Virus record (IMG/VR): IMGVR_UViG_2565956714_000006
Location: 1-21,539 of that record
DNA length: 21,539 nucleotides
DNA from: a virus
Lineage: Duplodnaviria; Heunggongvirae; Uroviricota; Caudoviricetes
Direction: 5' to 3' (one strand)
Below, piece by piece: positions 1,216-21,539 of the stretch. Made by a program: the position numbers and the translations under genes. The notes under the pieces were generated by a model. It worked only from the letters and a program-made list of their open reading frames with translations. It was not told the origin of the DNA and did no database searches. Within the stretch, counting starts at the first letter, position 1, and every line of letters starts with the position of its first letter.

Positions 1216-1419
1216 TTACATATTCATGTTCAGGAATATCGGTGCAATGAACACAAAAAGGACATTTCCAGCAATGAATCCATTTATTTTTTGTTCTTTT
1301 GAAACAATACGATAGCTTCTTAGAAGCCAATCCACAAGCATGCAAATCAAAACCGTTGGACAGTAGACGATCATTATGGTAACTGCTGCAACTATATACT
1401 GTACAATTTCACTAGGCAT
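1216..1419 (-). CDS. Small hydrophobic ORF (67 aa, two predicted TM segments) in an AT-rich remnant between int and IS5; possibly a moron remnant or spurious
   Basis: ATG-initiated ORF with an in-frame stop just upstream, so it is not an IS5-truncated longer gene. Weak Shine-Dalgarno, AT-rich rare codons. Stop codon abuts the int stop. Confidence 0.25.
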   Translation of the reverse strand: MPSEIVQYIVAAVTIMIVYCPTVLICMLVDWLLRSYRIVSKEQKINGFIAGNVLFVFIAPIFLNMNM

Positions 1420-1444
1420 TAAAGATTTTCACTATGGTTACTAG

Positions 1445-2640
<1,196 letters not shown>

Positions 2641-2728
2641 TTAACTATGAGATGAGTCTATGCAAAAAGATCTGTTGAATATTGCGTTCTATATATTTGG
2701 TTTTTGCACATTCCTGGTGTTTGCAAAG

Positions 2729-4726: not shown

Positions 4727-6021
4727 TAATCACCCCATAGTGAAGAAAAATTACTGCCAGTAGTAGGTTGTTGCGCTGGCGTATTCTGTACTGGCTCCTG
4801 ATAATCAAACTGTTTTTTAACAGTGCTCAACTTGCTTTCAAGCTGATTTCTAATCTTTCCGATAGAGTCACGAAAAGCCTTTTCACTCATTTTGGGGCTT
4901 AGGGCACCAACCGCATCGGATAATTTTTTACCCTCAGCATCTGAAAGAGCTCCCATCCCCTTAAGGGACTGCACCATAGGAAGGAAAGTTTGAGCTTTAA
5001 AGGTGTCGAGCCTTGCTTCAAAGTTAGCCGCATCAGAGCCAGGAACTGTCGGAAACGCTGAGCGAATTCCTACTGCTTTTGAAAGGCCGGGGCTTTGCTC
5101 TATCTCGTTGAGAGAATCAAGCGCGGTGCTGAACGTATCAACAGCACCCTGAGCGGCGGCCTGCCTGTCAGCGCGGGCTATGTCAGCCTTTTGCCGAACA
5201 TCTGCCTGTTTCTGTTTTAGCTCTTCAAGCTTTAACTGATTGCTTTCTCTGGCTATCTGTCTGTCCAGAGCCTTTTCTTGTAATTCTGCTCTTTGTATTT
5301 CGCGGGAAAGAGCAGCATTCTGTGCGCTGATGTTCTGTCCACGTATCTGGATGTCCTGACCTCGAGCTGTTAGTGCTTCTCCGGCCTGATTGCTGCGGAT
5401 TGTCTCTGCCAGCCTGCCTCGGTCAATCTCACGACCAGCCATCTTGTCCTGAACATTGAAGTAGTCAATCGGACCAAGTGCAGCCATCCCAAGGTGATCA
5501 ACAAACTCACCAAATCCTGAAGGATTCTGCTGATACATCTGAGCAACGTTATTAGGGTCAACACCGACGCGAGTCAGTTCCTTGGCGTTGTTTTGCAGCC
5601 ATGATTGCATTGCTTCTGGAGACGAGGCCGCAAGGCGTGCGCCAGCCGCTAAGGTGCCGATAGAATTGCGCTGGTCTTCATCAATGAATCCCATGCCTTT
5701 ACGAACGGATTCAATCTGGTCTGGATATTGAGTAGCCAACTGACGCAAAGCACCGCGATCACCAGACGCATAAGCATTAGCGTACGCCTGCTGAAATTCT
5801 TTCTGCCGCTGAGCCTGCTTTTCCTGCTGAAACACCCCTGCAATACCTGAAAGGCCTTGCAAAGCAGTCAGCCCAACATTGTTAGCGCCTGAACGCTCAA
5901 TATCATTGTTCTGCCTGATAAGCTGAAGCGTATTGCCGATGTCATTTACGCTCGGAGCGTTTGAGTTGACACCACCGATACCAGCCAACAATCCGCCGTT
6001 TGTTCCTTGCCAAGTAGCCAT
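4726..6021 (-). CDS. P22 gp20-like ejection protein, 431 aa
   Basis: Synteny between gp7-like and gp16-like genes; size and composition consistent with P22 gp20 / Sf6 gp12. Confidence 0.7.
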   Translation of the reverse strand: MATWQGTNGGLLAGIGGVNSNAPSVNDIGNTLQLIRQNNDIERSGANNVGLTALQGLSGIAGVFQQEKQAQRQKEFQQAYANAYASGDRGALRQLATQYPDQIESVRKGMGFIDEDQRNSIGTLAAGARLAASSPEAMQSWLQNNAKELTRVGVDPNNVAQMYQQNPSGFGEFVDHLGMAALGPIDYFNVQDKMAGREIDRGRLAETIRSNQAGEALTARGQDIQIRGQNISAQNAALSREIQRAELQEKALDRQIARESNQLKLEELKQKQADVRQKADIARADRQAAAQGAVDTFSTALDSLNEIEQSPGLSKAVGIRSAFPTVPGSDAANFEARLDTFKAQTFLPMVQSLKGMGALSDAEGKKLSDAVGALSPKMSEKAFRDSIGKIRNQLESKLSTVKKQFDYQEPVQNTPAQQPTTGSNFSSLWGD

Positions 6022-6030
6022 GATTACCCC

Positions 6031-6723
6031 TTAAAACAACGAGCCAAGCAGGCCAAGTCCGCCACCGATTGCGGCGCCTAATCCAGTACCAAGACCGGGA
6101 ACAATAGAACCAAGAGCGGCACCAGTCATAGCTCCTGAAGCTCCTCCGCTAATTGCTGTCTGAAGACCGGATGGCTTATTGGCATTAGCAGCGGCGAGAG
6201 CTGCGCTTTGCTGTGCAATGCTGCTCATGTTGTTGGCGTATGTCTGCCCGGCGTTCGCCTGACCTTGCAACGCACCAAGGCCAATGTTTGCCAGATTGTT
6301 GTAGTTGCTCATCTGGTTTGATAGCCACGACTGACCGAGAGTCGGCGCAATCGTAGCCAGTTGATTGCTTGTGGCTGTCGATCCAAGTCCACCCGTTGCC
6401 TCCGCAGCAGCAAGACTCTGGTAACGCGCCTGACCTGCAAGGTCTTTATACTGCTGAGAGTTGTAATACTGATTAAGTGCCTGCCCCTGTCCTTCTAAAC
6501 TGGAAAGATTCTGAAGCTGGTTAACATACTGCTCCGCAAGCGGCGTGAACGGAGCAAGGTTTTTCATGATCGTCTGCCACTGCTGATTTTGCAGGTCTGC
6601 GGCATACTTCTGAGCTTCTGCGGCATACTTTGCACTTTTATCGGAGCCACCTTTCCCGCCTTTTTCAGGGCAATAAGGTTCCTCGCCGCGCAGTTTTCTG
6701 CCCAGCTTAAATGCATATAACAT
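6031..6723 (-). CDS. P22 gp7-like ejection protein, 230 aa
   Basis: Size matches P22 gp7 (229 aa). Gly/Ala-rich C-terminus ending GLLGSLF. Synteny after the gp14-like gene. Confidence 0.7.
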   Translation of the reverse strand: MLYAFKLGRKLRGEEPYCPEKGGKGGSDKSAKYAAEAQKYAADLQNQQWQTIMKNLAPFTPLAEQYVNQLQNLSSLEGQGQALNQYYNSQQYKDLAGQARYQSLAAAEATGGLGSTATSNQLATIAPTLGQSWLSNQMSNYNNLANIGLGALQGQANAGQTYANNMSSIAQQSAALAAANANKPSGLQTAISGGASGAMTGAALGSIVPGLGTGLGAAIGGGLGLLGSLF

Positions 6724-6725
6724 GG

Positions 6726-7181
6726 CTATCTCCCGTGATTCAGGAAGTCGATTAGTTCTTCGCGTGTGGCGCTGTAAAACGTCACGTCATCCACGCCTTT
6801 GAAGTATTTCTTGATGGTTCCTACACGCTTAAGGCCAACCATTGCGCAGTACATCTGACCGTGGCGGAATTTGCGTGCAGCGAACGATGTGACGCACTGA
6901 ACGGTGGTGTTAGTCAGAATGTATCGCCAGAACGCCAGCCCGATTTCCTTGCTGAATCCACGAACCTCTGGCAGGTACATGGCGTGGCAATCGAATGTCA
7001 GCGGCTGAATCTCCTGATAGTAAACAATTCCTCCGAACTGCCCGTGCACGTTCACCTCAAAGTAACGGCATTCAGGTTTGTAGTCGTATCCATCACCGTT
7101 GTTGCTCCCGGCGATAATGTCGGGGTGATTTCCCACGGCTTCTATCAGGTCGATGTTTCGCGTTGGTTTGAATGTAATCAT
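6726..7181 (-). CDS. P22 gp14-like head-assembly/ejection-associated protein, 151 aa
   Basis: Lies between the tail needle (gp26) and gp7 homologues exactly as P22 gene 14 does. ATGA start/stop overlap with the upstream gene. Confidence 0.6.
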   Translation of the reverse strand: MITFKPTRNIDLIEAVGNHPDIIAGSNNGDGYDYKPECRYFEVNVHGQFGGIVYYQEIQPLTFDCHAMYLPEVRGFSKEIGLAFWRYILTNTTVQCVTSFAARKFRHGQMYCAMVGLKRVGTIKKYFKGVDDVTFYSATREELIDFLNHGR

Positions 7182-7882
7182 CAGTCAATCAGCCCATGTA
7201 ATCTAAGTGCTGTTTCAAGCGCCAGAATACGCTGCCGCGCCTGCTCCAAACCTGTAGCGATAGCTGCGACTTCGGATTGTGTGTACGTAGTGCCGACTGT
7301 GTATGACTGGTTAGCGTTGAATGAGCCAAGAAGAGGTGTACCTGTGGCTGCAGTCCATCCGGTATTTCTTGCTCCAACAACCTGAATTCCATCAACTGAA
7401 TATGATGTTTTTACATCCAGCGGTGACGCAAGAGACTGCAATTTGGTTACGGTTTTCGATACGTAATCACTCTTAATGCCAGAGACATCGTTTTCTACGC
7501 CATCCAGTCTTTTGTCAACAGTGACCAGATGCGCCTGAATATCGATAACCTCATCCAGCAAGTAATCAACATCGCTACGCAGTACGACTATCTTCCCTTC
7601 GGCGGTTGTTAACCTGACCTCAAGGAGATTTATCGCTTTTGTGTTTGCGGTGATTCTTGCATCGTGGTCAGCCAGTTCGACATCATGTTCATCGTTTTTT
7701 ACCTGGGCATCATAAGCGCCCTGACCAGCCTGATTTGCCTTTCCAGCAATTGCACCGACATCAGCCCCCTGATTAATGACATACAGCAGGTAAGACTGGC
7801 TGAAGATATTGCGTGGAAGGATTGATGTATCGAGCCGCGTCGCCTGAACAATAACCGGTGTGTTGAGATTCGAATCAGCCAT
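7181..7882 (-). CDS. Tail needle protein (P22 gp26 homologue), 233 aa
   Basis: N-terminus [25 protein letters not shown] and C-terminus [13 protein letters not shown] closely parallel P22 gp26 as recalled; same length. Confidence 0.85.
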
Positions 7883-9300
7883 TACTCAATCCTTATCTGG
7901 CAGACAGACAGAGTGACAGGTGACTTCGTGATAACACGCAATTTGAAGCCGACATTTTTCCTGATGCGCCCTACTCGTTTCCACAAAACGCGTTTGTCGT
8001 AAACGAACGGTTCATTCTGCTCAATCATCTGCTCACGTCCGTAATTGATGCCGTCAGTGGTTGCAGAGAGGAACAGGCGGTCGGCGTACTGAGCTACGCC
8101 AGTGGATGATTCCACCTCCAGATCGAAGCATCTGGCGTTATCCGCTTTGAACAACGGAGTAAACAGCAGGTGTTCCTGTTGCTTGTCGTACTGGCTGCTG
8201 ATATCGAACTGCAATTTCCCGGTAACAGATTCCAGCTTATCGCCGCACGTTATCTGATTGCCTTCGTAAATGAAGTCGATAGCGCGGTACACATCGTCAT
8301 ACAAGCCTGTTTTCAGTACACACCATTGCGGACCATTGGCGCTTGAAGATGCGTCGTACACGAGGACGTGGCGCGGAAGGTGGATAATCAGCAGTTCATG
8401 CGCATCAAATCGCAGCGATTCCATCACACCATCAGCCAGTTCATCAGCAGTGTAGGAGCGGAGGATTTTCTCAATGCTCGCGCTGGCGATTGGTGATACC
8501 TGACCGGAGCCGATGATGTATACAGACGGCGCACCTGTTGCCGGATTGCTGATGAACGCATACGAGTCAGCAAACGGCGTTTTGCAGTAGGTCCCGGCAA
8601 TGCCTTTCTGCACCATCAGCGATGGTTGTGCAACATACAAAGCGGCACCAACGGTGGTTGCACCAGTCAGGGAAAAATACTCAATCGTCGATGAACCAAA
8701 GCAGACGATGAAGTCTCGCCATGTTCCGATTCCGATGATGCCGTCAGGCTGCGACTCGGCACGATATTGTGCGCTGTAGCGGTCAGGATGCGATTCGTCT
8801 TCAAGGTCAGTGATAAACCATGAATCAGTGCCGTCTTTTGACCACGCATAACGCCCGCGTAAGCGCGTAATGTCACGAACAGAACCTAACTCATACTGCG
8901 TGAATCCGCTGTCTGTAGGCCAGTTTGAGACGGTTTTAACCGTGCCATCATAGCGATACTCGACCAGTTGACCATTAACGCCTACAGCCTGAGATGTCCG
9001 ACCATGTGCCATTGATACGCGACCACTTCCGGCGACGTCACCGACTTCGCTTTCGCCTTTGTAGAGCTTCCCACCACACACGCGATAAACAGCATTCTGC
9101 GCCATGTTGTACTCGACACCGCGCGATACACCATTCACATCAGAACGTTTGGCAATGCCCGGGAATGAGCGAAGATATCCGCTGCTGTTGAGTATTTCTT
9201 TGGGTGTAGCCAACATATTCACTGGCAGATAGTCGATATAGTCGGCGTTTCGAAAGTCTTTGCCGACACCTTTCATAAGCGGAAGTTGCTGAATCGGCAT
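7882..9300 (-). CDS. Head-completion / tail hub protein (P22 gp10 homologue), 472 aa
   Basis: Same length as P22 gp10 and closely similar throughout to the recalled sequence (MPIQQLP...CQIRIE). Confidence 0.85.
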
Positions 9301-9309
9301 TTATTCACC

Positions 9310-9771
9310 TCACGTACTCGGATCATCTTTCTCGATGTAAAACCGATTCCACGTAAACGCGCTTTTGTTACCACTACCGCGAGGCATGTCATTTCGCCGC
9401 TCAAGTGGTGGTATTTTGGTTAAAGCGATACAGATTGTTTGATATGCACTGTCAGCAGCGGTAAGGAGAGCGTCTGACGGCTGAATGACGTTATCCATGC
9501 ACACTTGCACAGCGAGTTTCAAAGCGACGCCATCATTTGCCCATGCAGGGATACCTGAATCATCGTCAGGTAACGGCATGATGCCGTTTTCTGTATCAGC
9601 AAACTGATACCCAAGCTCGATACCTTTCGCCTGCCATGCTGCCATCATGTCTTCGAGGTCATTAATAGCATCTTCAATTGCCTGAGGGTCAGCATCTGTC
9701 AACGTGGCATTGGAATACAGCCCGGCTTTTCGTAAAGCCTTAAGAACGAGATCACCCTTCGTTTTCGCCAT
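9310..9771 (-). CDS. Head-completion / tail adaptor protein (P22 gp4 homologue), 153 aa
   Basis: N-terminal KTKGDLV..ALRK.G...ATLTD..PQ motif as in P22 gp4; synteny between coat and gp10. Confidence 0.8.
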   Translation of the reverse strand: MAKTKGDLVLKALRKAGLYSNATLTDADPQAIEDAINDLEDMMAAWQAKGIELGYQFADTENGIMPLPDDDSGIPAWANDGVALKLAVQVCMDNVIQPSDALLTAADSAYQTICIALTKIPPLERRNDMPRGSGNKSAFTWNRFYIEKDDPST

Positions 9772-9940
9772 CTTCTTCCGCCTTAGCCACTTTTTGCTTC
9801 GTTGCGGTTTCTTCAGGAGTTTTTACCCAGCCTTTTTTCAGGTGAGATTTAACTTCTTCGTCATCAACAATGATGTAATCGACAGCAAACTGACCACAGG
9901 TGATCATGTTGCCAGGCTTATAGAGCATTGTTCGTGCCAT
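9752..9940 (-). CDS. Small hypothetical protein (62 aa from the internal ATG; track ORF extends to 9979)
   Basis: ATG at 9940 preceded by GGGAGAAG. The longer track ORF would start inside the coat terminator hairpin. Overlaps the gp4-like start by about 20 nt. Confidence 0.4.
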   Translation of the reverse strand: MARTMLYKPGNMITCGQFAVDYIIVDDEEVKSHLKKGWVKTPEETATKQKVAKAEEDGENEG

Positions 9941-9951
9941 TGTCTTCTCCC

Positions 9952-9974
9952 AATAAAAATGGGGCCGAAGCCCC
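9952..9974 (-). terminator. Intrinsic terminator/attenuator immediately downstream of the coat gene
   Basis: Minus-strand RNA GGGGC-UUCG-GCCCC (5-bp GC stem, UUCG tetraloop) followed by AUUUUUAUU, 8 nt after the coat stop. Confidence 0.7.
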
Positions 9975-9981
9975 ACCAAAA

Positions 9982-11241
9982 TTACTGCCCGGCAATAACG
10001 ATGCCCGTATATTCAGGAACCAGTACAGAGCAACCGTACAGAGTGGTGAAACGAGCAGTGGTTACGCCTTTGATGTGGTCGAAGGAGTAAGACATGATCA
10101 GCGTAGCGCCCTGCTCGGTGGTTGCTGTCATTACCTGTGGCCCCTGACCAGTCGGGAATGCCAGTTTTCCGTACATCAGTTCAACAGAACCATCAGCCCA
10201 GAACAGGTTAGCCGGTGCTGCGTTCTTGTTGAGAATGGTGATTGCTGCAGTTTCTGCCGGCTTGGCATCGACGTTTGCATATGGACGGCTCGCAACATCG
10301 GCATTTCCAACAGGGAGAATCTTTGGAGAGATTGTTACGGTGGTTCCTGCTGTGTCTACTGCCAGAACGCGGAATACCTGCGGCTGCCCGGTGGTATCTT
10401 TGGTGATCTGGTGTACGGAATTCACACCTGCGATGGTAAACGCATCGCCAACCTGCAAGCCTTTAGCAGATACCGTAATGGTCCCCTGTCGGTTATCAAC
10501 AGGCATGCCATTTGAATCTTTCGCTTCAACCTTGTGTTCAGGTTGATTTGATACTGTCAAGGTTTCAGTGCTTCCTGCCGGTAATCGACCGGAAATATCG
10601 GTCTTGTAGCTATCAAAGGAAGCAACCGGAGGGATCTGCGCTTTTTCGTATGCTGTCAGGGTTGCGCCCTGAGCGTAGGCACGGTGACCAAGCTCGCCAG
10701 CAAGGTCTTTGTAGTTGAATGGGCTCCAGAAAGAGCGACGGTTGATACCCTGAGGTACACCAATCGCCGTCATGGTGGCATCAATATCTGCCGCACCATT
10801 CCACAAGGCAAGGCCCCGTGAGCCATTTTCTGAGGCAGGAATTGCGACCACGTTAGTAGCACGCTGCGTGACCATGGAAATCAGGTCAGAGTCAATCTGT
10901 GCAGCAAGGCGCATACCTGCGGCTCGACCAGCTTCAGTTTTATGTTCCGGGTCACGCATTTCACGCGCATCCAGAGTGTACAGAATGTTTTTCGGCTCCT
11001 TGAACACAGAAGGAACAAGGCGCTGAACCAGTGCTGTTGGTGTTTTTTCGCTGAGGTCCAAGCCCTCCTCAATGTTCATGTGGTAATGCTGCGGACGATA
11101 CAGAACATCACCTGCTCGCTGCATTGCTGTATCACCGGGACGGAATTTTTTAGCGTTACGGGAAACTACGCAGGCGGCCTCAAAGCCTTCAACGTAGTTT
11201 TCGAACATGATTTCAAGGTCTTTTGCTAATTGGTTAGCCAT
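9982..11241 (-). CDS. Major capsid (coat) protein, P22 gp5 / Sf6 gp5 type, 419 aa
   Basis: Size and position (after scaffold, before terminator and gp4) match P22-like coat proteins. Confidence 0.85.
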   Translation of the reverse strand: MANQLAKDLEIMFENYVEGFEAACVVSRNAKKFRPGDTAMQRAGDVLYRPQHYHMNIEEGLDLSEKTPTALVQRLVPSVFKEPKNILYTLDAREMRDPEHKTEAGRAAGMRLAAQIDSDLISMVTQRATNVVAIPASENGSRGLALWNGAADIDATMTAIGVPQGINRRSFWSPFNYKDLAGELGHRAYAQGATLTAYEKAQIPPVASFDSYKTDISGRLPAGSTETLTVSNQPEHKVEAKDSNGMPVDNRQGTITVSAKGLQVGDAFTIAGVNSVHQITKDTTGQPQVFRVLAVDTAGTTVTISPKILPVGNADVASRPYANVDAKPAETAAITILNKNAAPANLFWADGSVELMYGKLAFPTGQGPQVMTATTEQGATLIMSYSFDHIKGVTTARFTTLYGCSVLVPEYTGIVIAGQ

Positions 11242-11259
11242 GCTTAATGCTCCGATAGG

Positions 11260-12153
11260 TTATTTTTTTGCCTTTTTAGCGGCGAAATACGGCGTCCAGT
11301 CACCAGTTTCCAGCGCCTTGGCTTTCAGTTTGTCGAGGTTATTGATTACTGCGCCGTTGCTCCCCTTAACTGTCGGGGTTGTGGCTGCCGTGGTTTTTGC
11401 TTTTGGCATGATTCTGGCCTTCGATTCGATACGTTCCAGCAGACGACCAATTGCTACGGGGTTGGTAGCTTCTGCCAGTTGCTTGCGCAGTTCAGCGTTG
11501 CGACCGAGTGCCAGAACAACGATTTCCGGCTTCTCTGACTCAAACAGGATCGCGTTTTGTGTCTCGATGGGGATTTCCTCGAGTACGGCCTGTTCTGCTT
11601 CCTGATAGCCAGGAACTTTGAGAGCCTTAACACGTTGCTGATATTTGGATAATCGCTCTTGATAGGCAGCCTGAAGCTCCTGCTCCTTCTGCTTGCGAGC
11701 CATCTCCTGTTGCTGGTACTTGCCGTTATCCTCTGCCCACTTAGCCATGCGTTGCTGGTAGATTTCTTCATCGAAACCGATGTCCTCATCGTCCAGTTTT
11801 GGCATTCGCGGTGGTTGAGTGATTACCGGCTGCTGCTCGACGGGTTTCTGAGACTGACGCATCAGCTCTTTCAGCTCGCGGTCTTTCTCTTTAATCGTCT
11901 TGCGCAGGTGTTTTACCAGTCCATGCTCTGCGCCATCTTCGCTGGTTGGCGAATCCAGCTTTTCGTCACCAAAGTAGAATTCCTGTTCTGATTCGTCGTC
12001 ATCAGTTTCAGTAGCTTCCTCTGCATCATTGCCGGAGGACTCACTGCCATCTTCTGTTTCGACTTCTTCAGCCAGTTCGACATCATCAGGAATCTGCTCT
12101 GACGCGTCGGTTTCGATTTCAACTTCTGGTGTGTTTTCTGCCATCTGGTCCAT
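11260..12153 (-). CDS. Scaffolding protein, 297 aa
   Basis: Position between portal and coat; highly acidic N-terminal region and charged helical C-terminus as in P22-like scaffolding proteins. Confidence 0.8.
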   Translation of the reverse strand: MDQMAENTPEVEIETDASEQIPDDVELAEEVETEDGSESSGNDAEEATETDDDESEQEFYFGDEKLDSPTSEDGAEHGLVKHLRKTIKEKDRELKELMRQSQKPVEQQPVITQPPRMPKLDDEDIGFDEEIYQQRMAKWAEDNGKYQQQEMARKQKEQELQAAYQERLSKYQQRVKALKVPGYQEAEQAVLEEIPIETQNAILFESEKPEIVVLALGRNAELRKQLAEATNPVAIGRLLERIESKARIMPKAKTTAATTPTVKGSNGAVINNLDKLKAKALETGDWTPYFAAKKAKK

Positions 12154-12243
12154 TTGTTACCCCTGTTTACTCGATGTTCAGCCCATCGGAAGGCAATAGG
12201 GTGCCAGGCCTAATAAAGACAGCCATTGCACGTTATGGGTTAA

Positions 12244-14442
12244 TTACTGCTGTGGTTGTTGCTGAGTTGATTTTTGCAGGATGCTGCTGATGTCCATGCG
12301 CTGCGCATGACCCTGTGCCTGACTTTTCAGGACAAGCTCTGCATCAGCACGGGCATTATCTCCTTGCTGTTGCTGGAACTGTCCGAGCAGTTTCAGAGCC
12401 TCGCGGATATCAGATTTCTGCTGGCTATCGGCAGATGCGAGGATTTTCACAACATTTGCCGCTGCAACCTGAGCATCAGTCTGTGCCTGGAATGCTTTAA
12501 CCTGAATGGCTGCCTGTTCGTTCTGCGCTTTCTGCAATTCAGCCTGACCAGCAAGAAGCTGACCTTGCGCTGCAACCATAGCCGGATCTGGCTGACTGGC
12601 CTGTTGTTGTTTCACCTGTTCAACCATCTGCTGTTCTTCAGGCGTTCTCGGCTTGATAACGCCAGACAGAAGCAACTGATTGCGGTTGTATTCTTTCAGG
12701 TCGTCCATCCCTTCGCCGTCCATATTGTCGAGAATCATCGACGATACAAGGTCGTGCTTCGGCGTTCCTGGTGGGATAAGTGCCAGCATGGAAAGTAACG
12801 ACTTAACCGTTGCATCACGGCGAGTAGCGAACGACTGACCGACATCGACAGTCACTTCATAGTTGCCCTGCGAAAGGTCATTAAGCGCGATAACCTGCCC
12901 TGTCTGACGGTCAACAACTTCACCAGTCATCAGCGCCACGTCATCGCTGCCGTCCTCATTAACGATGCGCATTGGCGTATCGCTGCCATAGACTTCACGC
13001 GCCATAGAAAGCCACACGACGCCAGCGCGGCGCATGGATTTAGCCATGTTGTCCATGTAGATATAGGACTGCGTGTCCATCCGGTTAAAGATGCTATCAA
13101 CGGTATCGGTAGCGACGTTGCTCGGCATATTCTCAAGCTGCGACGCACCTGTAATTTGCTGAATAGCCGTTCCGGTGTACTGCAATAGCCCGGCAAGAGC
13201 AGGAGGCATTTGTGTCGGAGGTGTATAACTGCTGACCTGAGCCTGCGCAGTAATATCTCCGTTTTTGTTTTTCAGACTGACCATCGGCAGGAACGCCGGG
13301 CGCTTTTTGTTGCGCTCCGCCCAATGAGTGGCGAGAGGACCAGGAATCATGTCAACATCAACTACAGGAATGCCATCACCGCCAGCCTGAGTAGCGTTAT
13401 CTGCAATCATGGAAACCATCAGGTTCTCAAGACGCTGTGCATCCATCGCTTTTGCTGCGTGGCCTTCGATTCGCTCCTGATTATCAACAAATGATCGACG
13501 CCCATATACCGGGATGAGAGGAATATGTTCGCCCGGAATACGCTTCGGTTCTTCCAGCCATTCAGCGCCAGACAGAAGACCGCAATAAACTCGGCGTTTC
13601 TTCACTGTCCGCTCGCCAATCAGTTCGAATGCGCCATCGGTCAGCTCGTCAACAATATCTTTGATTTGCTCTTCATCATAGATTGCCGTTTCTCCGCTGA
13701 CAGGATTGCGCCACGCCGTGAGCTTCACCTTCTCTATGCGAACTTCGTAGTAGCGTCCAACATAGATGGCATCAGGTGTTGACCAGTCATATTGAGTACC
13801 AGTGTCATCACGAGGAAGACTTGCCGCGATGGAATCAGGGTATTCAGCCTCGAACGCTTTAGGCGTCATGGAGAACATTTCCATAGCCCACATAGCATCA
13901 GAGCGGTCATATTGCTTGCTGTCCTGATCGAAGAAGACGCATGTCGCCGGGTCGTAAACAGGAAGAAGACTGATGCGTCGCTGCTCGTTACTCGGATCCA
14001 TTTCATCTTCGTAATCGGCACACATGCGGAAACAACCGAATCCACCCGTTACGGCATCATCAAATGCGTTATCACACGCTTCGCCACCGGATGTTTCCTG
14101 ATAGTCAGCGCGGAATTTGCCGTTCATTTTTTCGGCTAACGCTTCCGATGCCTTATCGTCCTTCGGCCTGAATTTAACGCTGATGCGATTCTGTCGATAC
14201 TCGCCAATGATGCGATCACATTCACGGGCAATCTTATTCAGTTCAAAGCGCGGGTAATGCTCAAACCTGCCTTCATCAAATGAGTAACCAGCGTTTGTGC
14301 TGCCTTCCCACTGTGCGCCGGATACCCGGACGAAACGTTGAGCCTCAATAATCTGCTCACGCATATCCTGCGTTGCTGACCAGGCATTATCAAAGTTGCA
14401 CAGCACCTTGCGATGCCAGTCAGTCATCTTTTTTTCTGCCAT
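12244..14442 (-). CDS. Portal protein (P22 gp1 homologue), 732 aa
   Basis: Matches recalled P22 gp1 motifs (GEHIPLIPVYG, PEEQQ, DPAMV.AQG.LL.GQAEL.KAQN, ARA.AEL.LK, QRMDI..ILQ). Start is 1 nt after the terL stop. Confidence 0.9.
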   Translation of the reverse strand: MAEKKMTDWHRKVLCNFDNAWSATQDMREQIIEAQRFVRVSGAQWEGSTNAGYSFDEGRFEHYPRFELNKIARECDRIIGEYRQNRISVKFRPKDDKASEALAEKMNGKFRADYQETSGGEACDNAFDDAVTGGFGCFRMCADYEDEMDPSNEQRRISLLPVYDPATCVFFDQDSKQYDRSDAMWAMEMFSMTPKAFEAEYPDSIAASLPRDDTGTQYDWSTPDAIYVGRYYEVRIEKVKLTAWRNPVSGETAIYDEEQIKDIVDELTDGAFELIGERTVKKRRVYCGLLSGAEWLEEPKRIPGEHIPLIPVYGRRSFVDNQERIEGHAAKAMDAQRLENLMVSMIADNATQAGGDGIPVVDVDMIPGPLATHWAERNKKRPAFLPMVSLKNKNGDITAQAQVSSYTPPTQMPPALAGLLQYTGTAIQQITGASQLENMPSNVATDTVDSIFNRMDTQSYIYMDNMAKSMRRAGVVWLSMAREVYGSDTPMRIVNEDGSDDVALMTGEVVDRQTGQVIALNDLSQGNYEVTVDVGQSFATRRDATVKSLLSMLALIPPGTPKHDLVSSMILDNMDGEGMDDLKEYNRNQLLLSGVIKPRTPEEQQMVEQVKQQQASQPDPAMVAAQGQLLAGQAELQKAQNEQAAIQVKAFQAQTDAQVAAANVVKILASADSQQKSDIREALKLLGQFQQQQGDNARADAELVLKSQAQGHAQRMDISSILQKSTQQQPQQ

Positions 14443-14443
14443 A

Positions 14444-15859
14444 TCAACCTACACCACAAGGAATTGAGTAACTGGAATAGTCGGGTTGCGCAGCCGACTC
14501 CGGGCAATGCATGCACATCATCAGCGCATCAGCCAGGTTAGGAGATGGAATACCGAGCTTCTGCTTCATTTCGACCTTAGTCATAAGCTCCAGCTTCCCG
14601 TTGTTATTGAATTTGCGCTGAATCTGCGTCAGTTCTGCAAACAGCTTCTCCAGCATCTTCTCGCCTATCGCTTCTTTGTCGAAACTCAGCATGTCGTCTG
14701 GGTCTGCATACTCACCGTGAACAACCGCCCGATATGTCAGATACAGCCTGTCAGCCAGCGCGTAATAGAATTGCGCTCGCTTATTGCGGAACACATCGCC
14801 AATAGTGCGAACGTTGTCGCCCTGTACGACTTCATCAGCCCATGCTCCGGCCTGATATGGCGCATCTTCATCGAATGGCGATTCGCTGCCCTTGAACATC
14901 GTGGCGGTGATTTTCTTGCCGGAGAACGCTTCCGTTGTCTGTCTGCGTAGCCCTGCACCGACACCATCGCCATCCCACAGGTAATGGTCAGCGCCGTCTT
15001 CAATCGCCAGCGAAATAGCCCAGTCAGCACCCTCGTTGATGTCCATCAGCAGACCTTCGGCAATGCGCTTAACTACCGAACCGTGACGCGATGCATAACC
15101 TTTAGCATCTGGCCCTGTATCTGATGGGTCATGCGCAGAAACAACAGCGCCTTTCGCTTTCCATCCGAGTTTCTTGTGCGCATCGGTTGCGGCTTCAAGC
15201 CATTCACGTTTGATGATTGCCATATCACTTGCGCTTACCGGCTCACCCAGCCAGATGTGACGATACAGTGTCGGATTTCTGCGTTTACACTCTTCCATCT
15301 CCAGACGGAGAACTTCAGGAAAATGCGGGTTGTCGGTGTAGTTCACCGTCAGCAGACAGATATCATCGGGAGGGTTTACTACGAATCGCTGATAGGTATC
15401 GTCGAGGATGTTTTTCGGGTTGAAGCTCACCCATATTTCGGAAAATGGCTTGCGGATGGTTGGTATCAGGATATCCCATGATTCCTTCGTTACCGCTTCC
15501 GCTTCTTCCACCCAGCAGATATCAATGCCTTCGAGCGATTTAATCTTCGTCGGGTTGTTTTTGATGCCGTAGAACATGAACTCAGCATTCGTTCCGAGAT
15601 GACGAATCATTGAACGCTGAATTTCAAACTCAGCCGAATACCCTTCACGCTCGATGGTATCTTCAAGCAACCGGATTACCGAATCGCTGATACTGTTTTG
15701 CAGTTCACGAGCGCAGAGAATACGCACAGGCTGCCGACGCGCCGCCTCAACAAGCAGCCTCGCTATTGCCCATGATTTACCGCTACCTCGACCGCCTTTG
15801 GCAACTTTGTAGCGATGCGCCTCAATGAACGGTTCAAAGATAGGATTAATCGAGGTCAT
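14444..15859 (-). CDS. Terminase large subunit (Sf6 gp2-like), 471 aa
   Basis: Walker A-like KGGRGSGKS near the N-terminus; follows terS with an ATGA overlap; size as Sf6/P22-type TerL. Confidence 0.9.
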   Translation of the reverse strand: MTSINPIFEPFIEAHRYKVAKGGRGSGKSWAIARLLVEAARRQPVRILCARELQNSISDSVIRLLEDTIEREGYSAEFEIQRSMIRHLGTNAEFMFYGIKNNPTKIKSLEGIDICWVEEAEAVTKESWDILIPTIRKPFSEIWVSFNPKNILDDTYQRFVVNPPDDICLLTVNYTDNPHFPEVLRLEMEECKRRNPTLYRHIWLGEPVSASDMAIIKREWLEAATDAHKKLGWKAKGAVVSAHDPSDTGPDAKGYASRHGSVVKRIAEGLLMDINEGADWAISLAIEDGADHYLWDGDGVGAGLRRQTTEAFSGKKITATMFKGSESPFDEDAPYQAGAWADEVVQGDNVRTIGDVFRNKRAQFYYALADRLYLTYRAVVHGEYADPDDMLSFDKEAIGEKMLEKLFAELTQIQRKFNNNGKLELMTKVEMKQKLGIPSPNLADALMMCMHCPESAAQPDYSSYSIPCGVG

Positions 15860-16281
15860 TTTACGAATAGAGTGCTCATCGGTGATGTTTCAATCTGGAT
15901 TGCGCCGCCGTCTTTGCCGACAAGCTCGTTAGTTACCTTGTCGCCATACTTACGGGGATTCATTCGGGCCAGCGCCCATTTGCGGGTATCAACGCGAAGT
16001 CTTGCCTTTGCCACCTCAGCAGCATCTGGAATCGCAGTGTCAGCAATTTCGAATATCTCTTCGAAAATAGAATCAGCTCGCGCCTCAGTTGCCTTCGCGT
16101 ACTTGTCTCTAAAGTCGTCATGCTCTGACAGCCAGCGAAATACAGTAGCCTTTGCTGGCATGCCGGGGCGCTTGCAAACCTTAACCAGACTTTCCCCGGA
16201 GGCAAGCAGCGCACAGATATCATCAGCCACCTCCGGCAGGTAATCCGAAGGGCGACCGACATTCTTTTTCTCAGTCGCCAT
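15856..16281 (-). CDS. Terminase small subunit (Sf6 gp1-like), 141 aa
   Basis: Sequence MATEKKNVGRPSDYLPEVADDICALLASGESLVKVCKRPGMP...RMNPRKYGDKVTNELVG closely matches Sf6 small terminase as recalled. Confidence 0.85.
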   Translation of the reverse strand: MATEKKNVGRPSDYLPEVADDICALLASGESLVKVCKRPGMPAKATVFRWLSEHDDFRDKYAKATEARADSIFEEIFEIADTAIPDAAEVAKARLRVDTRKWALARMNPRKYGDKVTNELVGKDGGAIQIETSPMSTLFVK

Positions 16282-16360
16282 ATTGATTATTTCCCTTCTG
16301 CTTGCTTATCCCATTCATCGCGGAATTTGGATGGGTTGTCGAAACCTTGAGTTGCCATGT

Positions 16361-16603
16361 TTATGCTCCGGTAGTGAACAGGTCTAACGCTTCCTTAGAT
16401 TTACGCACCGCTTCAAGTGTGCGGATCGTGATATCTGAATTAGCGCCGCCTGACTGGAAGTGAATTTTGAATAGCTCAAGCTTCAGTTCGTCAGTGCCAA
16501 TGAACTGAAATGCTTCCTCCGCGGCTGCGTTCTGGTTCATGACCAGTTTGTAAATCTCTAACTGGAATTTCTGTTCTTCAGTCATGGGAATAATCTCTGC
16601 CAT
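16361..16603 (-). CDS. Hypothetical phage protein, 80 aa (position equivalent to P22 orf80)
   Basis: ATG with GGAG 6 nt upstream; tightly packed upstream of terS; no recognisable motif. Confidence 0.45.
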   Translation of the reverse strand: MAEIIPMTEEQKFQLEIYKLVMNQNAAAEEAFQFIGTDELKLELFKIHFQSGGANSDITIRTLEAVRKSKEALDLFTTGA

Positions 16604-16706
16604 TGTTGGCTCCGTTTATCCGTTAAAAGGGATATCAGTTAAGTTATCCCGTGTAGGGTATAAGCCATTGTCAAAGCCACTCTGTAGGGAATGGCTTTTG
16701 TAATAA

Positions 16707-17063
16707 CTACTGTTCGCTTAGCTTCTGCTTCAGCAAGTAACCTTCGAGCATCCAGATTTTGTTTACAGCATTCTGCCGGGCAATCTTCCGACCAATTTCT
16801 GCATCAAAATTTTCCGGACTTGCACAGGCACTCTCTCCGGTGACGGTGAAGCCATTCTTCAGCACCAGTACGCAGAAAGTCAGGAGGTCTGTAGATTTAT
16901 GCGCTGTCCATGAATCGCCAACGCCCATATTGGCAGCACGAATGCCGTCATAAGCAGTAAAGAAATGCTCTTCAAGAATGATGCTTTCGATATATTGAGG
17001 CGTAACGCGCGGTGCCGTTTTGCCTTTCTCAACGATTTCTTTTTCGATTTGCTGGTCGTTCAT
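16707..17063 (-). CDS. Hypothetical phage protein, 118 aa; possibly N4 gp49 / Sf6 gene 66 family
   Basis: Clean ORF with ATG start. Family assignment is from memory of where such genes sit, next to lysis genes in enterobacterial prophages; unverified. Confidence 0.45.
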   Translation of the reverse strand: MNDQQIEKEIVEKGKTAPRVTPQYIESIILEEHFFTAYDGIRAANMGVGDSWTAHKSTDLLTFCVLVLKNGFTVTGESACASPENFDAEIGRKIARQNAVNKIWMLEGYLLKQKLSEQ

Positions 17064-17346
17064 AATTATGACCCTGTGGAGTGGTTGCTTGATTAGGATG
17101 TCTTTCCATCAGTCCGCCACCACAAAGAATCTTTTTTGCCATAAGGCAGGAGGTTCATCTTTCAGTGGCTGCCAGTGTTATTTCCCCACTTACTGGCTTG
17201 GGTTGTTTCGCTGTACTGCCGCAACTGGTGGTGCACAGATTTAGTTAAATCTGTTCTCGCCTGAACTATCTTTTACATACCCGGATTGTGGGGATGTAAA
17301 TCACGGTTTCATTATCAAGCCCACCCGTAGATGGGCTTTGGAATGG

Positions 17347-17865
17347 TCACTTTGGCAGTCCGGGGATCGATATTTGCGCCTGCTGCTCAAGCCTTTCGAT
17401 TCTTGCTATGAGTTGCGGTTTTTTGATCCTGCCCCAGCGGTTTAGCAAGCGTCCTGACATACTGGCAACATCCTTTTCCTTCATGAACTCCAGCATTAAC
17501 TCGTTGTGCTCTCTTTGGTATGAGTGAGCCATCTCCATCAGCCTGTCACGCATCCAATTAAATGCTTTGATAAACGCCTCTTTGATGGCGGCAGCTTTTT
17601 TGCCGGTAAACGACATGATGATGTACATCGCGCCGTCTTTGGAAATTTCATATTCAACATACTGATTACCCTTGTGTTCATAGGTAACCCGCGAAAAGTT
17701 GCTGGTTAGAAATTCATCCGAACAGTCTAGCTTTTCGATTTTCTGAATGATGTGGTGATGCTGCTTGTCGAAGTAAGCTGCTACCTTGCGGGAGGTTGTG
17801 ATCACGCGATCACCAGAAACAACCACCATGTCCCGGAAATCGAGATTAGCCAATTGATGATTCAT
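17347..17865 (-). CDS. Rha-family phage regulatory protein, 172 aa from ATG at 17865 (track ORF uses upstream GTG at 17901)
   Basis: Motifs TTSRKVAAYFDKQHHHIIQKIEKL and YEISKDGAMYIIMSFTGKKAAAIKEAFIKAFNWM fit the Rha N-terminal domain consensus. Confidence 0.65.
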   Translation of the reverse strand: MNHQLANLDFRDMVVVSGDRVITTSRKVAAYFDKQHHHIIQKIEKLDCSDEFLTSNFSRVTYEHKGNQYVEYEISKDGAMYIIMSFTGKKAAAIKEAFIKAFNWMRDRLMEMAHSYQREHNELMLEFMKEKDVASMSGRLLNRWGRIKKPQLIARIERLEQQAQISIPGLPK

Positions 17866-18014
17866 AGCGTCTTTACCTTTTAGAAAGTGAGCCTGTCTCA
17901 CAGAAAAGCCGCCCCGAGATGGTCGCCACCATATACGGCAGTTCTCAGGCTCAACTTTCTGAAAGGCTCGGGTGATGTAATATGCGCGTAAGATGCGCTG
18001 TGAAATTCAGATGT

Positions 18015-18037
18015 AAAAAAAGCCCCGCATCGCGAGG
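18015..18037 (-). terminator. Intrinsic terminator downstream of the lysis cassette
   Basis: Minus-strand RNA CCUCGC-GAU-GCGGGG hairpin (contains a G-U pair, so stable only on this strand) followed by C + UUUUUUU. Confidence 0.55.
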
Positions 18038-18071
18038 ATCATTAAATTGACTTTGTGATTTGCAAAAAAAA

Positions 18072-18509
18072 TTATTTCAGGCATTGCGTCCTGATGTACT
18101 CCTGCAGGTAGTTAACCTGCGCGGTTATCTTGTCGATTCCACTTCGGAGACGGTAATAATTGAGTTCAGCATCTGCTGTAAGTCTTGGGCTTTCTCCATC
18201 GCCCATGCCGCTGGCTCCGGTCGTTGACTTTGCACAGGTGGCGGCGACTTGCAGGCGCTTACGCCCAGCAGAAACATCAGCACGGAGACTTTCGATAGTC
18301 GCGTTAGCATCAGCAAGCTCCTTTGTGTATCTTGCGTCGAGTTCTGCTACATCACGTTGACGCTTCTGCATATCAGCGATGATGGATGTGGCTTTATCGC
18401 GCTGCTCTTTGTAGGTCATGGCGTTATCACGGTAATGATTAACAGCCCACGACAGGCAGACGATGATGCAGATAATCAGAGCGGAGATAATCGCGGTTAC
18501 TCTGCTCAT
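18072..18509 (-). CDS. Rz: Rz i-spanin, 145 aa
   Basis: N-terminal about 30 aa match lambda Rz ([28 protein letters not shown]) with signal-anchor TM; start overlaps the R stop. Confidence 0.9.
18125..18310 (-). CDS. Rz1: Rz1 o-spanin lipoprotein embedded in +1 frame within Rz, 61 aa from ATG (track lists a TTG start at 18316)
   Basis: Signal peptide with lipobox VSAC, Pro-rich mature part, fully embedded in Rz as in lambda. Confidence 0.75.
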
Positions 18510-18982
18510 GCCTCAATCTCTCTTACCGTTCCGCCAGCTTCTTTGAATTTTGCAATCAGGCTGTCAGCCTTATGCTCGAACTGACCATAACCAGCACCCG
18601 GCAGTGAAGCCCAGATATTGCTGCAACGGTCGATTGCCTGACGAATATCACCGCGATCAATCATCGGTAAAGCGCCACGCTCCTTAATCTGCTGCAGCGC
18701 AACAGCGTCCTGGCTTTTGGGAGAGAAGTCTTTCAGGCCAAGCTGCTTACGGTAAGCATCCCACCAACGGGAAAGAAGCTGGTAACGTCCGGCTGCTGTT
18801 GATTTGAGTTTGGGGTTTAGCGTGACAAGTTTGCGAGGGTGATCGGAGTAATCAGTGAATAGCTCTCCGCCAACAATGACGTCATAACCGTGATTTCTGG
18901 TTTTCTGTCGTCCGTTATCTGTTCCCTCTGACCACGCCAGCATATCGAGGAACGCCTTACGTTGATTATTGATTTCCACCAT
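18506..18982 (-). CDS. R: Endolysin R (lytic transglycosylase), 158 aa, lambda-type
   Basis: Near-identical to lambda R as recalled ([26 protein letters not shown]...). Confidence 0.95.
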
Positions 18983-19289
18983 CTTCTACTCCGGCTTTTT
19001 TAGCAGCGAAGCGTTTGATAAGCGAACCAATCGAGTCAGTACCGATGTAGCCGATGAACACGCTCGTTATATAAGCGAGATTGCTACTTAGTCCGGCGAA
19101 GTCGAGAAGGTCACGAATGAACCAGGCGATAATGGCGCACATCGTTGCGTCGATTACTGTTTTTGTAAACGCACCGCCATTATATCTGCCGCGAAGGTAC
19201 GCCATTGCAAACGCAAGGATTGCCCCGATGCCTTGTTCCTTTGCCGCGAGAATGGCGGCTAACAGGTCATGTTTTTCTGGCATCTTCAT
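18966..19289 (-). CDS. S: Holin/antiholin S (S107/S105 dual start), 107 aa, lambda-type
   Basis: Near-identical to lambda S as recalled, including the Met1-Lys2-Met3 dual-start motif (ATG at 19289 and 19283). Confidence 0.95.
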
Positions 19290-19414
19290 GTCTTACCCCC
19301 AATAAGGGGATTTGCTCTATTTAATTAGGAATAAGGTCGATTACTGATAGAACAAATCCAGGCTACTGTGTTTAGTAATCAGATTTGTTCGTGACCGATA
19401 TGCACGGGCAAAAC

Positions 19415-19531: not shown

Positions 19532-19607
19532 TGGTGCTGGTTAACGGACTTGAACCGCTACCCATTCGCTTACAAGGCGACTGCTCTACCATTGGAGCTA
19601 AACCAGC
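19532..19607 (-). tRNA. tRNA-Thr (anticodon UGU), CCA encoded
   Basis: Hand-folded cloverleaf: perfect 7-bp acceptor stem, D-arm GCTC/GAGC with GG loop, anticodon loop CTTGTAA, T-arm with TTCAAGT loop, discriminator A. Confidence 0.8.
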
Positions 19608-19612
19608 ATGTT

Positions 19613-19687
19613 TGGCGGGACAGCGTGGACTCGAACCACGATAAGAAGGTTAACAGCCTTCCGTAATGACCTTTATACGACTGACCC
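19613..19687 (-). tRNA. tRNA-Asn-like (anticodon GUU), CCA encoded, one acceptor-stem mismatch
   Basis: Hand-folded: acceptor GGGTCAG/CTGTCCC (T-T mismatch at 4:69), anticodon stem GAAGG/CCTTC with loop CTGTTAA, T-arm CGTGG-TTCGAGT-CCACG. Sits 5 nt from the tRNA-Thr. Confidence 0.65.
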
Positions 19688-19691
19688 AAAT

Positions 19692-19733
19692 AAAAAAAGC
19701 CACCGTTGCAACTTAAGAGTCACTAACGGCAGC
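19692..19733 (-). terminator. tR'-like leader terminator between the late promoter and the tRNA genes
   Basis: Minus-strand RNA stem GCUGCCGUU / AACGGUGGC (9 bp with two G-U pairs; would be C-A/A-C mismatches on the plus strand), 17-nt loop, followed by UUUUUUUAUUU. Confidence 0.5.
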
Positions 19734-19743
19734 TTACCTTCTA

Positions 19744-19773
19744 ATTATGGCTAAATGGATAATTGCATGTCAA
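19744..19773 (-). promoter_or_regulatory. pR'-like late promoter (sigma70 -35 TTGACA, 18-bp spacer, -10 CATAAT) at the 3' end of Q
   Basis: Consensus -35 hexamer at 19768-19773 and 5/6 -10 hexamer at 19744-19749 on the minus strand, where lambdoid phages place pR'. Confidence 0.55.
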
Positions 19774-20269
19774 GGCTTTTAACAGCAACATGCTTAACTT
19801 TCTCAACACGTTTACGCATTTTGAAAGCATTTTGCATTGGCTGGTACAAAACAAATAACGACGCTTTCAGGATGTCGTCAATTTCGTTTCTACAGGTTGC
19901 CAGTGAAGGTTTTCTCCATCCCTCGCCACCACGTCCACACATCTTGCGTGGCTTTGCAGTCGCGTGATAGTAGGATGCAATTGCTCGCTTAGATGAACCA
20001 TGAGCGTAGTAGCTGAGGAGGATGCCAAAGGCTTTCTTGTCAATGCACATGACGGAATCGACGACCTGAGAAATCAACATTCCATCATCATCATTGCACA
20101 TTGGCCTTGTCATAACTCTTCCCGGCTCTACGCTCTCCATGAACTTCGCTATTACGCTGCTCATACGCTTTTCCAGACGACCTGAATAAACCCATGCGCC
20201 CCACAGTTCAAGCCAGCCATTCAGCCACTCATGATGTTCTTTGGTGAGGTTTAGTTCTCTTATGCCCAC
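19751..20269 (-). CDS. Q: Late antiterminator Q, phi82/933W type, 172 aa with probable GTG start overlapping the ninI stop
   Basis: Motifs [21 protein letters not shown] and LLSYYAHG match the conserved pattern of 933W-type Q as recalled; unlike lambda Q. GGAG lies 7 nt upstream of the GTG. Confidence 0.7.
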
Positions 20270-20931
20270 GCGCCTTCTCCCTGTACCTGAATCAATGTGA
20301 GATTTCCGCAGAACACTGCCCCAGTATCGATATACATCTGGTTGGCAAATTTGAGTGGTTTCACTGCTGGCGTATGACCAAAGATAAACGTGTCCGCGCC
20401 TTTAATTTCTTTAACGATCCCGTCTTGTGAGTTGCTGATTCGTTCGCGGTTCCAGATTACCTGCTGATGATCAACTGGCTTTCCAAATTCGTATTCGTCA
20501 CAAGGATAATCGGCGTGGCAGATGACATATTTTTTACCTTTGCTCACCAGTTCGATGATTAACGGAAGTTCTTCTGCTTTATGGGCAAGAGCTTTAGCCA
20601 GAATTTCTTTGTCGTAATCGAGATTAAAGAACCAGCCACCGCCATTAAGCAGCCAGTGATTAACGTTTCCACGCTCTGATAAGCCATCAATCATCATTTG
20701 CTCATGGTTTCCACGTACAGCTCTGAACCAGGGGAATGTGATTAATTCCAGGCATTCAACGTTCTCTGCACCACGATCAACCAAATCGCCCACCGAGATA
20801 AGCAGGTCTTTTTTGTTGTCGAATCCAATCGTATCCAGTTTGTTCATCAGGTTCGTGTAGCATCCGTGCTGATCGCCAACTACCCAAATATTTCGGTATT
20901 TGCTGCCATCAATTCTTTCGTAGATATTCAT
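20260..20931 (-). CDS. ninI: NinI Ser/Thr protein phosphatase (lambda PPase), 223 aa
   Basis: Near-identical to lambda phosphatase as recalled ([26 protein letters not shown]...GNHE). Confidence 0.95.
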
Positions 20932-21539
20932 GCAGCCTCACTTCTGCTGTTTCGCAGTTTTTTAAGTTTCTGTTGATACTCCGCCTTGATGGTCCTGCAC
21001 TCTTCGACAGTCCAGCGATGGCGGTTATGGTTTGATTCGATTTCGTCTACTGCTTCCTGCCCGATGCGGTTAATCAGTTCGACGCGATACGGAACGAGAT
21101 TTCCGCTTTTGTGCTGGTTGCACACCACGCATTGCTTGTGAATATTGCGTTCATCAAATCGGAGTTGAGGCGCCGCAGCAGTTGTCCGGTAATGCCCGGC
21201 ATCCCACTGAGCAGACGTGAGCGTTCCGCACGAGATACATGGTAAGTCGCGGTCTCTTTCTCTGATGAAGGCGTTTACGGCTTGTTGGGCTTGTTTAATC
21301 CAGTAACTGCGGGGCTTTAAGGCGAGTTTTCGAATCTTAAGTTTATCTTTCTGTTTCTGCTCCTCTCGTCGTCGTTTCTTCTCTGCTGCCTTTTCCGCTT
21401 TTTCGCGTTCTTTGCTTCGTCGTTCGAGTGCTATCTTGGTTCCACACTCTGGAGAGCACCACCACTGATTGGCGAATGCAGGGTGAAACCATTCCCGACA
21501 TTCATCGTTTTTACATCGTCTTCGCGCTGGTTTAGCCAT
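20928..21539 (-). CDS. ninG: NinG (Rap) recombination/Holliday-junction endonuclease, 203 aa; window ends at its start codon
   Basis: Near-identical to lambda NinG as recalled ([33 protein letters not shown]...). Confidence 0.95.

Follow-up and report, generated by a model that had tools for sequence, protein, structure and literature searches.

What does it mean when a lambda-type ninG-ninI block lacks ninH and runs straight into a late antiterminator gene (Q) that is unrelated to lambda Q and starts inside ninI? This question is raised by one end of a 21,539-nt stretch of viral DNA, referred to here as the window. Between 19300 and 21539 every gene lies on the minus strand, as do the features described below except where stated. 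The original prediction had read this segment as a module swap, with a recombination junction in the last codons of ninI and a possible deletion scar where ninH would have been. We find instead that ninG-ninI without ninH followed by a Q21 cassette is a common arrangement in lambda-like phages, sequenced before and ordinary, and that the region is very probably the early-right to late regulatory part of a lambdoid phage or prophage of the P22-like group (Sf6/CUS-3-type), assembled from the usual exchangeable modules. The first of these is a lambda-type ninG-ninI block in a common allele without ninH; the second, a phage-21-type late-control cassette consisting of Q, a PR' promoter with Q-binding repeats, a pause element, the terminator tR', tRNA-Asn, and tRNA-Thr; and the third, lambda-type lysis genes S/R/Rz. 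At least 80% of the region is found in each of 392 complete E. coli genomes, and the best of them matches it as a single segment with 99.1% identity. Elsewhere the window codes for P22-like virion proteins whose best matches are CUS-3, vB_EcoP-720R6, and Sf6 relatives, which identifies the source as a lambdoid phage or prophage of the Lederbergvirus type, from E. coli or Shigella. Positions 1-19300 form a P22-like (Lederbergvirus) late region, with lambda-type S/R/Rz followed by terminase, portal, coat, ejection proteins, and tailspike, of which the best single phage record covers at most 66%, at about 96% identity.

Family and subtype of the Q antiterminator

The Q gene (19751..20269) encodes 172 aa from a GTG start. 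Its product matches PF06530 over residues 15-105 with 90.1 bits (cut-off 26), which places it in the Q21 family, and aligns over residues 1-162 with the solved Q of phage 21 (PDB 6jnx_P and 6p18_P; E 1e-90). Identity reaches 137/162 aa to phage 21 Q and 169 of 172 residues (98%) to the Q of Sf6 (gp59), and we assign the protein to the Sf6 subtype of this family. The order of the cassette, i.e., Q, PR' with a two-subsite direct-repeat Q-binding element (QBE) between -35 and -10, pause element, terminator, and late genes, likewise fits the Q21 family. Three families of Q have been distinguished, namely Q21 (Q21/Q933W, PF06530), Q-lambda (PF03589), and Q82 (PF06323) (10.1101/651190; PMC9388147). 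The expectation that the window's Q would be unrelated to lambda Q was borne out, PF06530 standing against PF03589 for the lambda protein.

The more specific label first given to this gene, a phi82/933W-type Q, held only in part. For a 933W-type antiterminator speak the PF06530 match and the WGAW motif, both of which the two proteins share, as well as the naming of PF06530 as the "Q21/Q933W family" (10.1101/651190). However, no nucleotide homology to 933W was found beyond ninG, Q region included, and at the protein level only 25/79 aa (32%) are identical to 933W Q, compared to the 137/162 shared with phage 21 Q. In addition, the rest of the cassette, from PR' through the pause element and tR' to the two tRNAs, is that of phage 21 and not that of 933W (ileZ, argN, argO), and in work on STEC, Q21 and Q933 figure as separate alleles whose aa similarity is about 36% (PMC3320398). 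As for phi82, Q82 represents a separate family, PF06323 (PMC9388147), for which no match was obtained at E <= 0.01. On these comparisons, the 933W label is right at the level of the Pfam family only and is refuted at the level of the subtype, which is Q21 of the Sf6 class, while phi82 belongs to another family altogether; that this Q is a 933W-type or phi82-type antiterminator is thus very improbable. Among surveyed alleles, Q codon 12 (20234-20236) of the window encodes H12 in place of Q12, a state seen in 1/114, and C75 in place of Y75 is a minority allele (13/114).

Late promoter, terminator, and tRNAs

The late promoter PR' (TTGACA-18 nt-CATAAT; 19744..19773) overlaps the 3' end of Q, scored 11/12 in a promoter scan, and is positionally homologous to the annotated PR' of phage 21 and Sf6. 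Within it, the direct repeat AATTATCC/ATTTAGCC (19749..19764) occupies the position of QBEu/QBEd in phage 21 (ATTGAGCA/AATGAGCA) and is a putative QBE. The TAAGCTG pause element (19730..19736) matches, base for base, the sequence annotated in phage 21 as a sigma-dependent pause element, and the intrinsic terminator tR' (19692..19735), a long hairpin followed by U7, is identical to the annotated phage 21 terminator. The predicted RNA fold of tR' has a free energy of -20.2 kcal/mol (z -4.6); a simple terminator scan did not call tR', its long hairpin and U-tract being seen by direct folding. Two tRNA genes were detected by ARAGORN, tRNA-Asn (GTT; 19613..19687), which belongs to the 21-type cassette as in phage 21 and Sf6, and tRNA-Thr (TGT; 19532..19607), after which the cassette reaches its right end and lambda homology starts from 19530. 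Q would load on RNA polymerase paused at PR' and carry it through tR' into the late genes.

Antisense to Q, on the plus strand, TTGCGTGGCTTTGC (19944-19957) fits the CII-binding consensus TTGY-N6-TTGY, and its position is homologous to that of the CII site annotated as paQ in phage 21, TTGCGAGGTCTTGC. Both tetrads have been retained within a stretch of Q that otherwise belongs to the diverged class. The consensus is not enriched window-wide (7 found versus 5.9 expected), and only the positional homology to paQ counts.

The GTG start codon of Q

The GTG start of Q (20269-20267) lies 10 nt inside ninI, whose TAA stop is found at 20262-20260, and is preceded at 7 nt by a GGAG Shine-Dalgarno sequence (20277..20280), itself within ninI; both distances agree with the original prediction. 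This GTG had also been put forward as the only start upstream of the WGAW motif, and a search for an overlooked in-frame ATG, extended to GTG and TTG, came back empty between the in-frame stop (20404) and the motif. At the homologous position, phage 21 has an ATG, and Sf6, HF4s, and phi458 have a GTG, as in the window. Since phage 21 has its ATG at this very base and the crystallised Q21 protein starts with MGIRELN, the GTG of the window marks the real start position.

Could the GTG instead be the sign of a weakened or decaying Q, with its start codon mutated in a prophage that is defective? As an initiator, GTG is in general weaker, the same base gives ATG in phage 21, and the window does carry rare private substitutions, Q12H in Q and L21Q in ninI. 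Against this, a scan of Q21 start contexts in IMG/VR recovered at least 120 contigs, and among the matches listed GTG was the majority state, with 87/120 against 33/120 for ATG. The ninI-linked Q21 starts, from at least 100 contigs, comprised 86 GTG and 14 ATG among the matches listed, while a phage-21-like ninH stub was found upstream in 20 of the contigs listed, 19 with ATG and one with GTG. Moreover, Sf6, HF4s, and phi458 are viable phages that have GTG, the A-to-G difference is synonymous in ninI (GCA to GCG), and the Q ORF, PR', the pause element, and tR' are all intact, so that a decaying Q seems highly unlikely. Taken together, the GTG majority among the matches listed and the homologous ATG of phage 21 indicate that GTG is correct, the usual state of this gene, and no defect.

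The leader AGGGAGAAGGCGC(A/G)TG is common to lambda, phage 21, and the window, and is also shared by Sf6, HF4s, and phi458. The 3' end of ninI thus provides Q with its ribosome-binding site (GGAG) and with the position of its start codon, about 20 nt of CAGGTACAGGGAGAAGGCGC followed by A/GTG standing before lambda Q and Q21-type Q alike. With the same leader before both, the unrelated cassettes diverge exactly after the start codon. Translation of Q from the GTG is probably coupled to the termination of ninI through the 10-nt overlap.

The homology boundary between ninI and Q

The boundary between lambda-type and 21-type homology falls at 20266..20267, directly after the Q start codon. By blastn, similarity to lambda extends across ninI and ends at 20267, the last base of that codon, and it resumes from 19530, just past tRNA-Thr. 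In ungapped comparison, the window matches lambda at 20/20 positions over 20289-20270 and at 7/20 from 20269 on; in 20-nt blocks anchored on the start codon, identity to lambda is 19, 19, 19, 18, 18, and 20/20 upstream and 7, 3, 6, and 7/20 downstream. Against phage 21 the pattern is reversed: the block just before the start codon matches at 14/20 positions, and those after it at 19-20/20. The predicted abrupt change at the last ninI codons is thus confirmed, and the alternative of a gradual change was not seen. The stop of ninI is supplied by each cassette, in lambda as ATGA (TGA) and in 21-type phages as ...GCG TGG GCA TAA (GEGAWA*), and in the window the last two codons of ninI and its stop are Q21-cassette sequence.

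The further claim that the recombination junction was made in this genome fails on distribution: the same ninI-Q21 joint is present in at least 100 viral contigs, and on this evidence the boundary is an old, shared joint and not an event of this genome. We infer the recombination history at this site from standard lambdoid modular evolution. One homologous crossover anywhere in the ~660 bp of ninI that the phages share, with a second beyond tRNA-Thr, would suffice to swap the Q cassette, and the sharp edge would thus represent an inherited limit of homology rather than a fresh breakpoint. The lambda record (J02459) carries a misc_recomb feature at 43884..43885, 1-2 nt before the Q ATG, i.e., essentially the same boundary. 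Over its corresponding segment (J02459 42429-44509), lambda has ninG and ninI about 97% identical to those of the window and shares with it the ribosome-binding sequence before Q and the nucleotide position of the Q start; unlike the window, it has ninH, a Q of the unrelated family PF03589, and its own PR', 6S, and tR'.

Phage 21 (OL657228; Q solved as PDB 6jnx and 6p18) has no ninI, yet keeps the last ~14 nt of ninI and the GEGAWA* frame upstream of Q, and the ninI-Q21 joint therefore appears older than the arrangement of phage 21. The ORF recorded there as "ninH fragment" (OL657228, 2454-2510) consists of a ninH stub of 10 codons joined to the final codons of ninI (...GEGAWA*). Phage 21 would thus seem to derive, by deletion, from an ancestor with ninH-ninI-Q21.

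A mosaic within Q and two QBE classes

We divided the region into blocks on the basis of sliding identity and alignment. From 21539 to about 20040, the window is about 100% identical to phi458. The next segment (19737..20004), covering Q codons ~89-172 as well as the -35, QBE, and -10 of PR', is of the Sf6 class, with about 99% identity to Sf6/HF4s compared to 56-72% to phage 21 and phi458. Positions 19736-19531 (TAAGCTG, tR', and both tRNAs) are common to all 21-type cassettes, and below 19530 the sequence is of lambda/Sf6 type. The mosaic joint lies near Q codon 89. The N-terminal half of Q is nearly identical in both classes, and the window combines the Sf6 class with a phi458-like N-terminal half of Q.

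The class of the Q C-terminal half and the class of the QBE were perfectly linked across about 110 IMG/VR contigs. In the phage 21 class, a C-terminal ...RVARPRKMLCRGGGRIQ... goes with the QBE ATTGAGCA/AATGAGCA; in the Sf6 class, to which the window belongs, the QBE is AATTA(G/T)CC/ATTTAGCC. This pattern may reflect two discrete specificity classes among Q21-lineage antiterminators, arising from the mosaic joint near codon 89, a reading we hold tentatively and at somewhat less than an even chance. The C-terminal half of Q is expected to hold the DNA-recognition motif of Q21, described as an HT[loop]H DNA-binding motif (10.1101/651190). Conversely, the elements lie less than 150 bp apart, and the linkage could be a matter of mere physical proximity. 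No paper linking Q21, QBE, and Sf6 was found in the literature library that was searched.

The closest known relatives illustrate the two classes. In phage 21, the N-terminal ~100 aa of Q are about 97% identical to those of the window, the pause element, tR', and the genes for tRNA-Asn and tRNA-Thr show full or almost full identity, and AGGGAGAAGGCGC precedes the start; by contrast, Q residues 103-162 and the QBE repeats differ, the start is ATG, and the window's Q is longer by a 10-aa C-terminal extension. Phage phi458 (OP434518) is colinear with the window at 95.4%, shows ninG-ninI-Q21 without ninH, the identical joint GCATGAATATCTACGAA, and the GTG start, and is about 100% identical from ninG to mid-Q. 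It differs in having a C-terminal half of Q and a QBE of the phage 21 class, with a 162-aa Q, and in its downstream lysis genes, which are not the lambda/Sf6-type S and R of the window; the window switches class at about 20004. Sf6 (NC_005344, genes 54-59) is 98% identical to the window at the nucleotide level apart from IS911 and ninH, and shares the 172-aa Q, the GTG start inside ninI, the Sf6-class QBE/PR', tRNA-Asn/Thr, and lambda-type S/R, its record listing PR', qut, tR', and tRNA-Asn/Thr alongside genes 54-59. Unlike the window, it carries ninH between ninG and ninI and an IS911 inserted in ninG.

Several details of the Sf6-class QBE overlap with coding sequence. The 10-aa extension of Sf6-class Q relative to phage 21 Q (19751-19773) is coded through the -35 of PR' and the upstream QBE half-site, and the gene stops inside the downstream half-site. 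The upstream half-site reads AATTATCC in the window and AATTAGCC in Sf6, one base apart, AATTATCC being the commonest allele surveyed. As Q is coded through this half-site, the G/T polymorphism there changes the penultimate residue of Q (A/S).

ninG, ninI, and the missing ninH

The ninG gene (20928..21539), a Rap-type junction endonuclease gene, comprises an ORF of 203 aa, and the window ends at its ATG. Its product matches PF05766 with 303.5 bits and is near-identical to that of lambda (197/203 aa; 96.9% at the nucleotide level), which places it with lambda NinG/Rap; compared to phi458, identity is about 100%. Likewise, ninI (20260..20931) encodes a lambda-type Ser/Thr phosphatase of 223 aa, with a Metallophos domain (PF00149, 58 bits) and 213/221 aa identical to lambda NinI (97.1% at the nucleotide level). 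The domain, the GDxHG motif, and the near-identity to lambda identify it as a NinI phosphatase, the motif reading GDQHG here and not GDLHG. The two genes are thus lambda-type, as had been proposed, but not lambda-identical. The motif variant reflects L21Q at ninI codon 21 (20869-20871), in the metal-binding GDxHG motif, found in 1/87 surveyed alleles.

The absence of ninH was corroborated, with neither tblastn nor blastn giving a match to lambda ninH anywhere in the window, remnants included. At the joint between the two genes, GCATGAATATCTACGAA (20917..20933), the stop codon of ninG and the start codon of ninI share bases in an ATGA at 20931-20928 (TCAT on the plus strand), as predicted. Compared to lambda, 189 nt (43044-43232, spanning ninH) are replaced here by 5 nt, a net difference of 184 nt by which lambda, Sf6, and HF4s are all longer than the window. 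In the window and phi458 the joint reads GTGAGGCTGC ATGA ATATC TACGAAAG, and the same place in lambda, Sf6, and HF4s reads GTGAGGCCGC ATGA CGTTC...(ninH)...GAG ATG CGC TAT TACGAAA. The five nucleotides ATATC are explained by neither lambda flank; ninI codons 2-3 (AAT ATC versus CGC TAT) cannot be derived from either side, and there is therefore no clean scar.

The ninH-less joint was found in about 32 IMG/VR contigs and the ninH+ form in about 56. It goes almost without exception with a ninG 3' haplotype of its own, CTTAAAAA(A/T)CTG...GAGG(C/T)TGC, and sliding identity around it falls to 88-92% against lambda and Sf6 while remaining at 100% against phi458. The Stx2c phages 2851, 1717, and Nil2, along with phage JLK-2012, are colinear with the window without ninH at about 92%. 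A check for a precise ninH deletion scar at 20928-20931 accordingly found none, given the unexplained ATATC, the separate ninG 3' haplotype, and the wide distribution of the joint. That ninH was nonetheless lost recently and precisely in this genome is suggested by the closest overall relatives (Sf6, HF4s, and CurroJimenez), which have ninH where the window is about 184 nt shorter, but is the least probable of the alternatives considered and extremely unlikely, as the identical joint recurs in phi458, Stx2c phages, the IMG/VR contigs, and many E. coli genomes, its ATATC cannot be obtained from either lambda-type flank, and it travels with a diverged ninG 3' haplotype. Judged from its sequence and distribution, the ninH-less joint is an old, widespread allele and not a private deletion; the two alleles may go back to an ancient deletion, which gave the ninH-less form, or to an insertion, which gave the ninH+ form.

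Implications

The main reading rests on observed gene identities, boundaries, allele frequencies, and conservation of regulatory elements, and none of the observations speaks against it. The data give no support to the earlier view of this locus as a noteworthy junction or a deletion scar. The exact arrangement is known already, both from GenBank (Sf6, phi458, Stx2c phages) and from hundreds of E. coli prophages. Its practical value is for annotation: Q should be named as Q21-type of the Sf6 subclass, its GTG start is correct, and the ninH-less state is a normal allele. The joint variation of the C-terminal half of Q and the QBE is only a mildly interesting lead; if the two classes are real and do not cross-react, they would amount to a naturally occurring exchange of protein-DNA specificity in an antiterminator of known structure. 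Overall, the locus is a textbook case of lambdoid modular mosaicism, in which Q cassettes unrelated to each other follow one and the same ribosome-binding site and start-codon position in the 3' end of ninI.
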